A stretch of 64,000 nt of DNA from Escherichia coli (GCF_050320075.1 NZ_CP190018.1), one strand, 5' to 3'. Counted from the first letter of the stretch, positions 4,325-32,104 are shown. Notes: generated by a model not told the origin, from the letters alone. Numbers and translations are program-made.

Positions 4325-12307
<7,983 letters not shown>

Positions 12308-12795: not shown

Positions 12796-13593
12796 TTAAT
12801 GAACATTCGTCGCCGAAAACGAGTCTGTATCATTAGCGTGATGCAGTCTCTGCAAAGGATCTTGTTGATAAAATTGGCAGAAACGTTGCCACAATGAAGG
12901 GAAACGAGGAGCAAAAAGTTCTGGGGCGCTAAAGAAATATTCAGAAAGTACGGCAAAACACTCAGCAGGATCACTGGCAGCATAAGCATCGATGCTCGCC
13001 GCATTCTCGCCAACTAATTCGATTTCTTCCTGAATATTGTTCATTGCAGCATGAAGATCGTGTTCCCAGCCAGCAACCTCACGCAACGGAATAAAGGGAA
13101 CTCCGCTTGCGCGATCGCCATTACGGGTGTCCAGCTTATGAGCGACTTCATGAATAATCAGGTTAAAACCAGAAGCATCAAAAGAATCTTGTATATCCAA
13201 CCAGTTCAAAACGATAGGCCCTTGCTGCCAGCTCTGACCTGACTGAACAATACGTTGGTTATGCACCAGACCGATATCGTCTTCCCATTCGTCATCGACC
13301 ACAAATGGCGCAGGATAAATTAAGACTTCATGAAAACCATCCAGCCATTCCAGTCCTAACTCCAGAACGGGCAGGCAAAATAGAAGTGCTATCCGGCAGC
13401 TTCTTAATGAATCCAGTTCAAAGCCCTGTAAAGGAACAAGCCGCTTTTGCTGTAAAAAACGTTCGGCAAGAGTGACTAATTTGCTTTGTTCCTGTTCCGT
13501 CAGACACGTTAAAAGGGGGATCGATAGTGCTTCCTGCCAGGGAAGGGCAGTTTGATGTGCTGATTCTTGTACTTTCCAGGGCCACTTAATCAT
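12796..13593 (-). CDS. mtfA: Mlc titration factor A (zinc-dependent peptidase fold)
   Basis: ORF 12796..13632; likely start [14 protein letters not shown] at 13593; HEVAH motif present. Confidence 0.8.
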
Positions 13594-28053: not shown

Positions 28054-29096
28054 ATACATATCTGGATTATCACCTGTTACGGTAAAAAGTGATTGCTTAC
28101 TGTTTTTGTGAATGGCATTGCAGCAGCCGGATAATGTCAGTGCTGGCTGACGGTGTGCTGGTGGCGGGTGTGGTGGTTGTTGCTTTCCCGTTGCTGAAAA
28201 AGAAAACGCCAGACTGTTAGCCGGGTATCAGTTAGCGGGAGAAATTTTTAAATACTTCACAATTCAGGCGGTTGACTGTTGTCTGGTTTGCGGGGAGTTT
28301 GTTAAAAGAAACTGGCATGGTGAATCCCCCTGTGCGGAGGGGCAATCAGCGAGTAGGTATATGGGATAATCGCGGATTCAGGTGCTGGTACTGAATTCAC
28401 CGGGAGGCACCCGGCACCATGCAATGGCACATAGCGCCACTCTCCAGCCCCTCTCCGGAGGGGCTGTTTATATTGATTTTGTCAGATGTGAGTAAACTCC
28501 TTATGGACTTTGTTGTTTTAGTCCATAAGGACATATTTGCAGAGTGCAACGGTTATTAAAGCATTCATTCAATACGTTATCTGTATTTGTAGGGCATTCC
28601 TGGCTGTTTTTGATTAAATTCCAGAATGTTTTATTGAATGGTACTACGTTGTAAATGGTTACAGGTAGCACTTTGTTATTGAGCATGATACCTGTGTGAG
28701 TCAGTGTAAATATACTTTCAGGAGGTAAGAAAGCATCCGATTGATATCAGATTATTAATTTTACTTTACTCCATATGACTGAAAAAGATATTCCGCATGA
28801 TGGCTGGATAACTGTATCAATCACAATCCACTTCATTTAGCTTCCTTGTTTATGCCTTGCTGGTGATGTTCTGAAAAGTATAAATGATATTTTTGAATGT
28901 AAACCATAGCGCAGAATTATTTTTCTGATGTTGTTTATTGTTTATTTAAATGCAGGGTGGTTTATATCTCGTCTTGTAGTTTATCCATGCATATCTGCTT
29001 GATAATCAGGTTTTTATTTAAGGTATGGTTTTGTGTTTTTTCTGTATTACATATCCGGTATTTTAAAGAATTATTTTTCAGATAGTGGAAAGAACC

Positions 29097-29285
29097 ATGG
29101 CATTTAAACACTATGATGTTGTCAGGGCGGCGCCGCCGTCAGATCTTGCGGAAAAGCTGACACATAAACTGAAAGAGGGCGGGCAGCCGTTTGGTAGTCC
29201 GGTGGCCATAACCCCTTATACCCTGATGCAGGCGATTGCAGCAGAAGGTGATGTGGTGGTCAGTGGTGCAACTGAGCCGGAGTGA
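29097..29285 (+). CDS. Small conserved phage protein upstream of lysis genes
   Basis: 62-aa ORF MAFKHYDVVRAAPPSDLAEKL... Confidence 0.4.
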   Translation: MAFKHYDVVRAAPPSDLAEKLTHKLKEGGQPFGSPVAITPYTLMQAIAAEGDVVVSGATEPE

Positions 29286-29592
29286 TACTACGTCATCGTA
29301 CTGGCCCGGCATTCCAGGCCATAAAAGACAGTCTGGCAGTGGGACTAAATGCACTGACGCTGATGGATATTACCAAAAATGTAACGTATGGCGTTGAGAT
29401 AGAAAGTCTGGCGCTGGAGATAAATGCACCGGCATCATCATAAAAAGTGAGCCAGTCAAATGGAAGGTATCGTTAAACTCACCGGTAGTGTCAGTGGGTC
29501 GTCTGAGACGCTTGCATGAGTTATCAGAGCCATCAGTAGTTAACTGGTGGCTTTTTTATTGTTTTCAGCTTCCGGATAACGGGAGACGGGGT

Positions 29593-29808
29593 ATGGACCA
29601 GATGGAAAAAATCACAACAGGTGTGTCATACACCACGTCAGCGGTGGGAACGGGCTACTGGTTCCTGCAGTTGCTGGACAGGGTTTCCCCGTCTCAGTGG
29701 GCGGCAATAGGCGTGCTGGGGAGTCTGCTGTTTGGGCTGCTGACATATCTGACTAACCTGTATTTCAAAATCAGAGAGGACCGTCGTAAGGCGGCACGGG
29801 GAGAGTAA
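29593..29808 (+). CDS. Holin, EssD/S21 pinholin type
   Basis: 71 aa [71 protein letters not shown]; close match to recalled K-12 EssD; dual-start M..M. Confidence 0.8.
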
Positions 29809-29812
29809 TTCA

Positions 29813-30157
29813 ATGACTCAAAACTATGAACTGATTGTGAAAGGGATCCGCAATTTTGAGAATAAAGTTACGGTAACTTTAGCATTACAGGACAAAGAAC
29901 GCTTTGACGGTGAAATTTTTGACCTGGACATCTCGCTGGACCGTGTTGAAGGTGCTGCGCTGGAGTTTTATGAGGCAGCGGCCAGAAGGAGCATCAGACA
30001 GGTCTTCCTGGATGTCGCTGCCGGGTTATGTGAAGGGGATGAGCAGTCGCCGGAAAAGCGCCCCGTAATTTTAGAGGCGCAGAATGTATGGATAACCTAC
30101 AAAGGAAAGCTACCGGGAAGGATTACTGGTTCCCTGAAGACTCCGCCGAAATGGTAG
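29813..30157 (+). CDS. Hypothetical protein inserted between holin and endolysin
   Basis: 114-aa ORF, GGAGAG RBS, 5 bp after holin stop. Confidence 0.45.
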   Translation: MTQNYELIVKGIRNFENKVTVTLALQDKERFDGEIFDLDISLDRVEGAALEFYEAAARRSIRQVFLDVAAGLCEGDEQSPEKRPVILEAQNVWITYKGKLPGRITGSLKTPPKW

Positions 30158-30395
30158 TTTTGCCAGCATAATTTTCTTCCAGCAATGCCGCCAGCCACTT
30201 GAAAGAATTTTGTTGTTCCTGGGACCATTTGGGGTTGCGTGATTCAAAATGAATGGATGCCAGCGTTGGCAGCATTTGCTCCCTGGGAATTGATAAGGCC
30301 AGATGTGAAAATGCAACAGTGAGGGCATTTACATCATCCCGAAGCCTGAAAATGCAGTCGAGCAACTCCTGTAGAGAAATGGTGCTATTGTCCAT
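30123..30395 (-). CDS. Hypothetical protein, antisense to late operon
   Basis: 90-aa ORF with AGAGGA RBS; converges on and overlaps previous ORF by 35 bp. Confidence 0.3.
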   Translation of the reverse strand: MDNSTISLQELLDCIFRLRDDVNALTVAFSHLALSIPREQMLPTLASIHFESRNPKWSQEQQNSFKWLAALLEENYAGKTTISAESSGNQ

Positions 30396-30500
30396 AAATA
30401 ATCCTCTTGATTGTCTTTACCTTTTCCCCGCCTGATTCAACAGGCCGGGACAGATAAACATATCCAGGGTTCAGAAACCGATAAATCCTGATAAATATCC

Positions 30501-31034
30501 ATGAACGCAAAAATCAAATACGGCCTGTCAGCTGCAGTTCTGGCGCTGATTGGAGCAGGCGCATCAGCTCCTCAGATACTTGACCAGTTTCTGGATGAAA
30601 AAGAGGGTAACCACACTACGGCATACCGCGATGGTTCCGGCAACTGGACCATCTGTCGGGGGGCCACGATGGTGGATGGAAAACCCGTTTTTCCCGGTAT
30701 GAAACTGTCGAAGGAAAAATGCGACCAGGTCAACGCCATTGAGCGTGATAAGGCGCTGGCATGGGTGGAGAAAAACATCAAAGTGCCATTGAGCGAACCC
30801 CAGAAAGCGGGGATCGCGTCATTCTGTCCGTACAACATTGGTCCCGGTAAGTGTTTCCCGTCGACGTTTTATAAACGAATTAATGCAGGTGATCGCAGGG
30901 GAGCGTGTGAGGCGATTCGCTGGTGGATTAAGGACGGTGGCAGAGACTGCCGTATTCGTTCAAACAACTGCTACGGTCAGGTATCCCGTCGTGACCAGGA
31001 GAGCGCGCTGGCGTGCTGGGGTATCGACAGATAA
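30501..31034 (+). CDS. SAR endolysin (lysozyme family)
   Basis: 177 aa; Gly/Ala-rich N-terminal SAR segment GLSAAVLALIGAGASA; lysozyme-like body; follows holin. Confidence 0.75.
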   Translation: MNAKIKYGLSAAVLALIGAGASAPQILDQFLDEKEGNHTTAYRDGSGNWTICRGATMVDGKPVFPGMKLSKEKCDQVNAIERDKALAWVEKNIKVPLSEPQKAGIASFCPYNIGPGKCFPSTFYKRINAGDRRGACEAIRWWIKDGGRDCRIRSNNCYGQVSRRDQESALACWGIDR

Positions 31035-31232
31035 GCAGAATATTTTGCTGAAAAATAAGGCATGGCCACGCGGGCGGATAACATGAAATCCTGCGAAGTG
31101 GCGAAACGTAAGTGAATAAAAGTAAAAACCCCGTTTGTTGGCACCAAGCGGGGTTTTGTGTTTCCTGACTCCGGAAAAGTCAAAGGAGAAAGTGTGTTTG
31201 ATTTTAGCAAACTGATTCGGGAGATTCGAGTG

Positions 31233-31331
31233 ATGGCTGAAAAATTATCCACCTGGAAGTTCATTCTTATCTGGCTGGTGTTTGTGATTATGGCCTCTGG
31301 TTATTTCATCGGTCAGATACGCTGGTGGTGA
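31233..31331 (+). CDS. Small single-TM peptide (32 aa) translationally coupled to Rz
   Basis: [32 protein letters not shown]; stop 2 nt before Rz ATG. Confidence 0.3.
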
Positions 31332-31332
31332 A

Positions 31333-31797
31333 ATGAACCGCGTACTGTGCGTGGTCATCATTGCCCTGCTGGTGGCCTGTGGTGCGCTTAGTCTGGGGCT
31401 GAATCATTACCGTGATAACGCCATTACCTACAAAGCCCAGCGCGACAAAAATGTCAGAGAACTGAAGCTGGCGAACGCGGCAATTACTGACATGCAGATG
31501 CGTCAGCGTGATGTTGCTGCGCTCGATGCAAAATACACGAAGGAGTTAGCTGATGCGAAAGCTGAAAATGATGCTCTGCGTGATGATGTTGCCGCTGGTC
31601 GTCGTCGGTTGCACATCAAAGCAGTCTGTCAGTCAGTGCGTGAAGCCACCACCGCCTCCGGCGTGGATAATGCAGCCTCCCCCCGATTGGCAGACACCGC
31701 TGAACGGGATTATTTCACCCTCAGAGCGCGACTGATAATAATGCAAAAACAACTTGAAGGGGCACAGCTATACATTCGAGAGCAATGCCTCAGATAA
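31333..31797 (+). CDS. Spanin, inner-membrane subunit (Rz)
   Basis: 154 aa; N-terminal TM then coiled-coil; embedded +1-frame lipoprotein gene. Confidence 0.75.
31553..31735 (+). CDS. Spanin, outer-membrane lipoprotein subunit (Rz1), embedded in Rz
   Basis: 60 aa; lipobox LVVVGC; proline-rich ([15 protein letters not shown]). Confidence 0.65.
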
Positions 31798-32104
31798 AAA
31801 CCGGCCAAGGATAATCCGCTGAAGATTCGCCGGTGGCTAAAGTGTGCCAAGAGTTCAATTTACGCAATTACTCCTGTCGATGCTATGTACCGTCTTTGTG
31901 AAGTCAATGGATACCTGATTTATTTCTGTGCGCTGTATCGTCGCTGTACTCTTGCATTAATTATGACTGTAGCCTGACGGGGAACTCCTTCTGCACAAGT
32001 GTGGGGGAATAATCAAAAACGATGCACACCGGGGTTACCGGGTACACATATTTCATCATGCCAGCGAGTCCGGTTCTGGCACGGAAGAAACCGGACGTTA
32101 TGAT

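Follow-up and report, generated by a model that had tools for sequence, protein, structure and literature searches.

The two open reading frames (ORFs) at positions 29813-30395 of our window, a 64,000-nucleotide stretch of Escherichia coli DNA (GCF_050320075.1 NZ_CP190018.1), are best explained as a common accessory gene, ydfR, followed by a separately acquired small gene of the "moron" type, ORF2. We give this explanation, in which two mosaic modules lie side by side between a pinholin and a SAR endolysin gene, a probability of about 0.75. An earlier note on this DNA had seen here an unusual two-ORF insertion, with a lysis-timing regulator or a late-expressed cargo pair as candidates. The ORFs are in fact widespread and carry known annotation: ORF1 belongs to the YdfR family/DUF1327, and PGAP annotates the whole holin-ydfR-ORF2-lysozyme layout in over 1,100 genomes, which is roughly one in five of the complete genomes of E. 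coli. With both genes catalogued and their arrangement widely annotated, the locus is already known and ordinary.

Upstream of ORF1 lies the gene for an S21-type (class II) pinholin of 71 aa with dual starts at Met1 and Met4 (29593-29808, plus strand; stop codon TAA at 29806-29808). Its product matches the Pfam family PF04971, "phage P21 holin S," with 112.5 bits, has a hydrophobic core at residues 36-54 (maximum 19-residue hydropathy, 1.70), and shows a Nei-Gojobori dN/dS of 0.08. Downstream of ORF2 lies the gene for an R21/RrrQ-type lysozyme of 177 aa (30501-31034, plus strand), which is intact in the window, matches PF00959 at 85.7 bits, and begins with a hydrophobic, Gly/Ala-rich segment at residues 9-27, LSAAVLALIGAGASA (also given as LSAAVLALIGAGASAPQIL), of predicted SAR-type membrane topology. 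The lysis cassette ends with the Rz spanin gene (31333-31797, plus strand; 154 aa; PF03245 at 177.7 bits), in which the ORF table places an embedded Rz1 with the lipoprotein signal ...VVVGC (31553-31735, plus strand). A dual-start S21-family holin, a lysozyme with a SAR segment, and Rz with an embedded Rz1 together identify a pinholin/SAR-endolysin cassette, and the earlier note had named both flanks correctly. Just 5' of the holin gene, a terminator-like hairpin (29526-29554, plus strand) consists of a 12-bp stem followed by the T-run TTTATTGTTT; it is likely a barrier that only antiterminated late transcription passes. An antiterminator gene is found upstream in the near-identical ATCC 11775 locus, and the window region is 99.9 to 100% identical to many E. 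coli chromosomes. PGAP labels the four genes, in order, "class II holin family protein," "YdfR family protein," "hypothetical protein" (WP_001351274.1), and "lysozyme" (also "rrrQ lysozyme").

The geometry described in the earlier note stands. ORF1 (29813-30157, plus strand, 114 aa) has a good ribosome-binding site, and ORF2 (30123-30395, minus strand, 90 aa) converges on it with a 3' overlap of 35 bp (30123-30157); the distance from the holin stop codon to the ATG of ORF1 comes to 4 nt. The Shine-Dalgarno sequence of ORF1, GGGGAGAG, is contained within the last holin codons. Against PF07041 (DUF1327), ORF1 scores 148.4 bits (gathering cutoff, 25), with residues 1-112 aligned to profile positions 1-92 of 93, and it matches phrog_406 with an E value of 2.7e-68. 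By profile match and genomic slot alike, ORF1 is a member of the YdfR family/DUF1327. The gene is located 4 to 5 nt behind the holin gene in all four ydfR-bearing architectures that we distinguish (types B to E, the window being type D).

YdfR proteins are 103, 114, 116, 176, 183, or 211 aa long; residues 1-112 are common to all except the K-12 form, and the sequences diverge thereafter. The window protein is made up of these family-conserved residues, two cassette-encoded codons (KW), and a stop, and it is called a short form here because the tail of the long YdfR of type E is itself under purifying selection (pN/pS, 0.30). For codons 1-72 (29813-30028, plus strand), an AlphaFold2 model predicts a beta-beta-beta-alpha domain with strands at residues 5-14, 18-27, and 34-43 and a helix at residues 50-73 (pLDDT, 65 to 85 over residues 5-73); over residues 1-72, the window and K-12 proteins are identical at 61 of 72 positions (85%). 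Codons 73-112 (30029-30148, plus strand) make up a second conserved module, CEGDEQSPEKRP...GSLKTPP, whose columns are nearly invariant in an alignment of 26 sequences; this module is missing from K-12 YdfR and is modeled with a pLDDT below 50. YdfR lacks both a signal sequence and membrane segments, is acidic (pI of about 5), and reaches a maximum 19-residue hydropathy of only 0.69. We picture it as soluble and located in the cytoplasm, its N terminus forming the small predicted beta-beta-beta-alpha domain. Family searches revealed no similarity of YdfR to a known antiholin or lysis regulator (S107/S21-71, LydB, RI, RIII, LysA/B) and no informative fold match, and a sequence search of solved structures returned nothing for either the YdfR or the ORF2 family.

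Sequence comparison indicates that ORF1 and ORF2 are genuine genes under purifying selection, beyond what chance would give. Selection was assessed by Nei-Gojobori dN/dS on 80 IMG/VR loci found with ORF2, which yielded 53 unique sequences. The holin-ORF1-ORF2-lysozyme geometry, overlap and spacing included, was identical in all 80 loci. ORF1 was intact in 53 of the 53 unique sequences, with a dN/dS of 0.35. The minus-strand ORF, whose conservation the earlier note had named as a check, proved to be conserved as well: it was intact in 50 of 53, with a dN/dS of 0.33 (0.29 outside the overlap). For both ORFs, the two shifted same-strand frames gave about 0.8 to 1.3. The frame on the other strand with which ORF2 shares wobble positions gives a value as low as that of ORF2 itself, and so the strand of ORF2 is decided by its intactness, its conserved start and Shine-Dalgarno sequence, its PHROG family, and its protein relatives. 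These relatives, at identities down to 24%, keep the helix pattern and the motif ELL..I..LR..VN.L..AF.YL.F in unrelated DNA.

ORF2 belongs by profile to PHROG 2411, matching phrog_2411 from end to end (residues 1-90 on profile positions 1-90 of 90; E value, 6.6e-54), and it has 61 close and more than 60 distant homologs. Nothing significant was found in Pfam, NCBIfam, or PADLOC, either for ORF2 or for 11 diverse family members scanned singly; the best NCBIfam line, the anti-silencing protein Mip, had an E value of 0.09, below any threshold, and was set aside. In the AlphaFold2 model (pLDDT, 78), helices are predicted at residues 8-35, 38-52, and 59-77, and residues 80-90 are disordered. A Foldseek comparison of this model with the PDB gave a best E value of 1.7 and no informative structural neighbor. 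The protein has no transmembrane segment or signal sequence, a pI of 4.9, and a maximum 19-residue hydropathy of 0.85; going by the model, it is an acidic, soluble, three-helix protein. The 86-aa PHROG 2572 protein found in type E loci looks similar to ORF2 by eye in its N-terminal pattern, but BLASTP found nothing and hhalign gave a probability of 0.2%, and this relationship was rejected. As judged from their sequences, neither ORF product is an envelope protein, since both lack a hydrophobic segment and have a pI of about 5. The earlier note had recognized no lysis protein in either ORF, and indeed neither has a family match to one.

The region in front of ORF2 (30396-30485, minus strand), as read from the sequence, contains its leader and a candidate promoter. 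The Shine-Dalgarno sequence AAGAGGA (30402-30408) precedes the ATG by 6 nt; a hairpin, CCCGGCCTG-TTGAAT-CAGGCGGGG, is located at about 30427-30450, and the leader folds at -24 kcal/mol. Further up on the minus strand are a -10-like TATGTT (30457-30462) and a -35-like TTTATC (30480-30485), spaced by 17 nt, which match the consensus at 7 of 12 positions. A simple sigma-70 consensus scan called no promoter for ORF2, and we infer TTTATC/TATGTT to be a candidate. The sequence shared with the type E cassette stops exactly at TATGTT, which is the cassette boundary. No intrinsic terminator was found after ORF2 and none on the minus strand between ORF2 and the holin gene. No Rfam family matched 29000-32000 or the leaders of distant ORF2 relatives. 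In distant relatives, the leader shows a hairpin whose stem covaries and whose loop, GAUGGCUGAUUA(A)C, is conserved. The window lacks this hairpin; most of the 120 matches to the 14-mer GATGGCTGATTAAC in IMG/VR are due to chance, and 2 (L197 and L220) lie upstream of an ORF2-family member. Two further regulatory candidates were discarded. For SOS control of ORF2, no upstream LexA box (CTGT-N8-ACAG with an AT-rich core) was found, the sole core match, in relative L091, being a hairpin stem; and homology between the upstream regions of ORF2 and its distant relative L093 was marginal (z of 4.1, with 1 in 300 shuffles scoring as high).

The distribution of the two genes was determined over 5,426 complete E. 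coli genomes. The S21-type holin occurs at 13,415 places in 4,295 genomes, ydfR (codons 1-112) at 8,615 places in 4,348 genomes (80%), often in several copies, and ORF2-specific DNA at 1,353 places in 1,220 genomes. About two thirds of S21-type holin loci thus have ydfR behind the holin, that of the K-12 Qin prophage included, so that in E. coli prophages S and R are more often separated by a gene than not, and little is left of the supposed unusual insertion. The starting premise of the earlier note, that pinholin and SAR endolysin genes are normally adjacent, holds for phage 21-type phages, DLP12, many Stx phages, and many related phages (VT2-Sakai, Min27, P27, and others) and fails for these ydfR-bearing loci. 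ORF2 DNA adjoins a YdfR-family gene in nearly all sampled records, whereas most ydfR loci are without ORF2. An exhaustive profile search additionally recovered distant ORF2 relatives (24 to 40% identity) at other kinds of sites: antiparallel between the lambda-like tail genes tape measure, M, L, and K (L093, L101, L276, L277, and L279), antiparallel beside the terminase region (L091), on the chromosome between dinI and bssS (L099 and L100), and at other chromosomal sites (L096, L102, and L272). None of the distant relatives' loci inspected has a DUF1327 neighbor, and the convergent neighbors of the relatives are mutually unrelated. An LK(T/K)PP C terminus common to the window ydfR and a 71-aa ORF at L093 was dismissed as a coincidence, the underlying DNA being nonhomologous.

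Pairwise distances among type D loci point in the same direction. The correlation (rho) is 0.37 between ydfR and ORF2 and -0.02 between holin and ydfR, compared with 0.67 between ORF2 and its leader and 0.40 to 0.53 between ORF2 and the endolysin; the weak values indicate mosaic recombination rather than coevolution. Together, these sequence data indicate that ydfR and ORF2 are two independent mosaic modules at one recombination-prone junction and not a two-gene unit.

Mapping of the window against types B, C, and E located that junction precisely. Homology breaks at 30149-30152 on the left and resumes at 30445-30457 on the right, and the intervening DNA specific to type D (30153-30444, about 300 bp) is the ORF2 cassette, which takes the place of everything after ydfR codon 112. 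Its GC content is 0.452, versus 0.542 for the holin gene and 0.532 for the lysozyme gene. Other prophages fill the same space differently. In type C (L085), there is nothing between the junctions and YdfR ends in ...KTPPESQP; in type D, ORF2 lies between them and YdfR ends in ...KTPPKW; and in type E (L088, phage PhiR5_1), YdfR runs on for 64 to 99 extra residues and meets an 86-aa minus-strand gene, phrog_2572, with a 53-bp overlap of their ends. One type C prophage has a bor gene at the equivalent position of its lysis region. ORF2 has its last ~9 codons and its stop in DNA that belongs to the shared part of ydfR, where they lie antisense to codons ~104-114 of that gene. We propose that the cassette swap gave ydfR its two-codon tail and left ORF2 reading about 9 codons into antisense ydfR until it reached a stop. 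On this comparison, the 35-bp overlap simply follows from the place at which the cassette was joined, ~27 bp upstream of the first antisense stop.

How these two modules would operate can be outlined with varying confidence. In E. coli, S21-type lysis cassettes regularly carry ydfR as an accessory gene, and it would be made together with holin and endolysin from the late, Q-antiterminated transcript; we place it on that transcript because it starts 4 nt behind the pinholin gene and has its Shine-Dalgarno sequence inside the holin codons. ORF2 has the features of a moron, namely, presence or absence among collinear prophages with sharp junctions and a deviant GC content. As a small gene complete in itself, it has a ribosome-binding site and would probably be served by a promoter of its own on the side of the endolysin gene. 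The earlier idea of late-expressed cargo does not suit ORF2, which is not carried by the late transcript because it lies on the opposite strand; transcription against the late operon would most plausibly come from the resting prophage. From its sequence and setting, ORF2 may encode a small effector that is expressed by the prophage and whose gene runs against the late operon.

For YdfR, the available experimental evidence comes from K-12. A two-hybrid screen in which RNase G served as bait yielded residues 1-72 of the K-12 protein, which also interacted with RNase E constructs, and full-length K-12 YdfR gave a signal with Rne(1-597) and copurified with Rne(1-598) and RNA (PMC13232886). The authors of that study were unable to exclude that a contaminant held the RNA in their YdfR preparation (PMC13232886). 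Overproduction of YdfR changed few transcripts, did not slow growth, and was not toxic (PMC13232886). The literature on "DUF1327" and "YdfR family" contained no functional study beyond that one; separately, essQ-ydfR-rrrQ is listed as one operon in K-12 (PMC3946193). These RNase E assays used the K-12 allele, whose sequence departs from that of the window after residue ~70. By analogy with this orthologue, the N-terminal domain of YdfR may bind the catalytic, N-terminal half of RNase E and perhaps RNA as well. Because the K-12 domain is reported to bind RNase E, modulation of RNA turnover late in infection, rather than direct action on the envelope, is our leading if tentative suggestion for what YdfR does.

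The alternative raised in the earlier note for this locus, a regulator of lysis timing, would have YdfR, produced in parallel with the pinholin, act on the cytoplasmic tail of the latter or on SAR endolysin release, delaying or sharpening triggering. P1 LydB and T4 RI/RIII modulate their holins, and YdfR is placed where such a regulator might be sought: it lies invariably and directly behind an S21-type holin gene, with the 4-nt gap and the Shine-Dalgarno sequence in holin codons, is present in about two thirds of S21-type cassettes, and in K-12 has a stop codon that overlaps the rrrQ start. A fixed slot in thousands of prophages would also be expected of a lysis regulator. Yet S and R are directly adjacent in DLP12 and in many related phages (VT2-Sakai, Min27, P27, and others), so that ydfR is dispensable for lysis; the protein has no membrane segment or signal sequence and no similarity to known antiholins or lysis regulators; and its forms of 103, 114, 116, and 176 to 211 aa show that the C-terminal half can be swapped or cut short freely. 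Being soluble, dispensable in related phages, and so variable in its C-terminal half, YdfR makes an unlikely lysis-timing regulator, and we rank this role second, behind RNA turnover. Its overproduction, moreover, caused no growth defect (PMC13232886). A K-12 ydfR mutant did score in an envelope-integrity screen, going by the citation of that screen in PMC13232886, but this phenotype could, on our own reading, reflect the polarity of a cassette placed between essQ and rrrQ. A broader scheme would join several of these elements: YdfR as a late RNase E/RNA-binding factor that sets the stability or stoichiometry of the S/R/Rz message and hence lysis timing, the PHROG 2411 moron as a lysogen-expressed small effector whose family has an undescribed cis-regulatory leader hairpin, and terminator-less transcription as an antisense brake on leaky holin expression. 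We think it improbable that all of these hold together.

Two other explanations concern ORF2 and its relation to ydfR, and both fare worse. If ORF2 were untranslated, an antisense RNA or merely tolerated sequence, its transcription through ydfR and S might dampen leaky expression of lysis genes in the lysogen. The missing minus-strand terminator is compatible with this, as transcription, once begun, would continue through ydfR and S on their antisense strand; the leader is able to fold stably; and dN/dS is unable to separate ORF2 from the wobble-sharing plus-strand frame (0.29 versus 0.23). Against it, a 273-nt frame with conserved ATG, Shine-Dalgarno sequence, and stop stays open in 50 of 53 unique sequences whose DNA differs by as much as 16%, the model of its product is confident (pLDDT, 78), and only a protein accounts for a motif that is kept at 24% identity in unrelated DNA, which makes a noncoding ORF2 very unlikely. 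Still less credible is that ORF1 and ORF2 form one unit, toxin-antitoxin-like or a coadapted cargo pair, with expression coupled through the 35-bp overlap. Such a unit would fit the constant overlap and spacing in 80 of 80 IMG/VR loci and more than 1,100 genomes, as well as the purifying selection on both ORFs. However, each gene occurs without the other, ydfR being found at 8,615 places and the cassette at 1,353 and ORF2 relatives having no DUF1327 neighbor; the overlap is set by the cassette junction and encodes a disordered ORF2 tail; their divergence is weakly correlated (rho, 0.37) and no more so than that of ORF2 and the endolysin; and neither gene has a PADLOC match. The pairing proposed in the earlier note is thus largely refuted by the distribution of the sequences, and the reading that we prefer remains that of a common accessory gene and a separately acquired moron.

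With both gene families already catalogued, the locus itself adds little. Its interest lies in what it represents: ydfR is the gene that most often fills the space between holin and endolysin genes in E. coli prophages, and the single experimental lead on it points to RNase E and not to the envelope. The junction also shows lambdoid prophages swapping small opposite-strand cargo genes at fixed boundaries.

Several known systems provide points of comparison. YdfR of the K-12 Qin cryptic prophage (b1555, P76160) shares with the window protein the DUF1327/PF07041 domain and the slot between essQ (S21-type holin) and rrrQ (lysozyme). Unlike the window form, it has 103 aa, diverges after residue ~70, and is without the 73-112 module; in K-12, the ydfR stop codon overlaps the start of rrrQ, with no gene behind it on the minus strand. 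PHROG 2572 loci (PhiR5_1 and E. coli CP026836) share with the window both junctions, a convergent 3' overlap (53 bp versus 35 bp), and the stretch in front of R as far as the TATGTT on the minus strand. They differ in that YdfR runs on for 64 to 99 aa as a coiled-coil-like tail and in that their 86-aa protein is unrelated to ORF2.

The lambda-type morons bor and lom resemble ORF2 in being small genes set against the late operon, variably present, and of lower GC content. The bor gene lies on the opposite strand next to Rz, and lom lies in the tail region; the ORF2 relatives that sit between tail genes recall the placement of lom. Both Bor and Lom are exported to the envelope and are known to be expressed in the lysogen, whereas ORF2 would be soluble and acidic, has no signal sequence, and has only putative lysogen expression. 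For YdfR, the holin-adjacent regulators (P1 LydB, T4 RI/RIII, and the S107/S21-71 antiholins) are alike in position, beside the holin and presumably coexpressed with it. YdfR departs from them in having no sequence or fold similarity to them and no membrane segment, in being dispensable, and in being neither toxic nor protective when overproduced. A further known system for comparison is that of the phage-encoded RNase E binders, T4 Srd, phiKZ Dip/gp37, and T7 gp0.7.

Comparison of the holin-ydfR segment of the window (29593-30157) with 53 related sequences revealed a sharp mosaic break between the S21-type pinholin gene and ydfR (ORF1, DUF1327, 29813-30157). Across these sequences the holin alleles differed by up to 29%, the neighboring ydfR genes were 94-100% identical, and the pairwise distances of the two genes were uncorrelated (rho -0.02). 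Public collections also hold proteins of 139 to 187 aa that combine P21-holin and DUF1327 domains (P0062, P0066, P0097, P0148, P0159, and P0172). Such holin-YdfR fusion products require a frameshift at the 4-nt junction between the two genes, and they may be either assembly errors or natural frameshift variants.

On the other side of the insertion, the DNA 5' of the endolysin gene (window 30445-30520) is common to architectures that carry different minus-strand cargo, namely, PHROG 2411, the family of ORF2 (30123-30395, minus strand), or the unrelated PHROG 2572. This shared homology stops exactly at a -10-like hexamer, TATGTT, on the minus strand (30457-30462). This arrangement suggests a candidate single promoter module that would be used by exchangeable minus-strand cargo genes.

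Within ORF2 itself, codon 16 (window 30348-30350) encodes Phe, whereas Ser occupies this site in at least 90% of the 24 family members aligned. The substitution is specific to this allele and falls on a conserved residue of helix 1. DNA identical to the Phe16 allele was found in three genomes. The endolysin gene is intact in the window (30501-31034), whereas in ATCC 11775, the type strain of E. coli, it is a frameshifted pseudogene (L001:7002-7536) in a prophage that is otherwise 99.9% identical.

Phage-borne distant relatives of ORF2 have in common a leader of ~100 nt (L091:3850-4000, L093:3850-4000, L271:~1140-1268, L097:670-820, L220:~4700-4846, L101:305-455, L276:~845-972, and L279:1-114), in which a hairpin is placed 8 to 15 nt 5' of the Shine-Dalgarno sequence. 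Its loop is conserved, GATGGCTGATTA(A/C)C, and its stems covary (AAAGAGG/CCTCTTT, CCGAAG/CTTCGG, GCGGAG/CTCTGC, and CCGGAGG/CCTCTGG). Paired cells made up 81%, versus 59% in shuffles, and compensatory changes occurred at six of the seven stem pairs, a level reached by 0 of 500 shuffles; two G-U pairs favor the mRNA strand. Alignment of the L097 and L220 leaders gave a score of 128 (z 40), far above what would be expected from their divergent proteins. The leader had no match in Rfam, and the hairpin motif is not present in the leader of the window's own ORF2.

An E. coli relative of ORF2 with 62% identity (L102:2542-2811) lies 3' of an AIDA-type autotransporter gene and not within any lysis cassette. 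About 170 nt beyond it, at L102:2985-3127, is a full-length match (134 bits) to isrN (RF01396), an Hfq-binding sRNA family.

The lysis cassette of the window also holds a second small insertion, located between R, the endolysin gene, and Rz. Here, a strong terminator-like hairpin (31125-31157) is followed by an ORF of 45 aa (31194-31331, phrog_6632), which has the Shine-Dalgarno sequence AAGGAG and ends 1 nt before the start of Rz. Its predicted product has one clear membrane segment of 19 residues and, being a membrane protein, is a priori more likely than ORF1 or ORF2 to modulate lysis.

Upstream of the holin gene, tRNA genes with a CAT anticodon and for Arg-TCT (27333-27589) lie 3' of the antiterminator/methylase region. 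Between them and the holin gene is ~1.9 kb of ORF-poor DNA of low GC content (0.42; 27600-29500), and in its ATCC 11775 counterpart DUF1737 pseudogene remnants are annotated. This tRNA/low-GC slot ahead of the holin gene (27333-29500) corresponds to the position that stx occupies in Stx phages.
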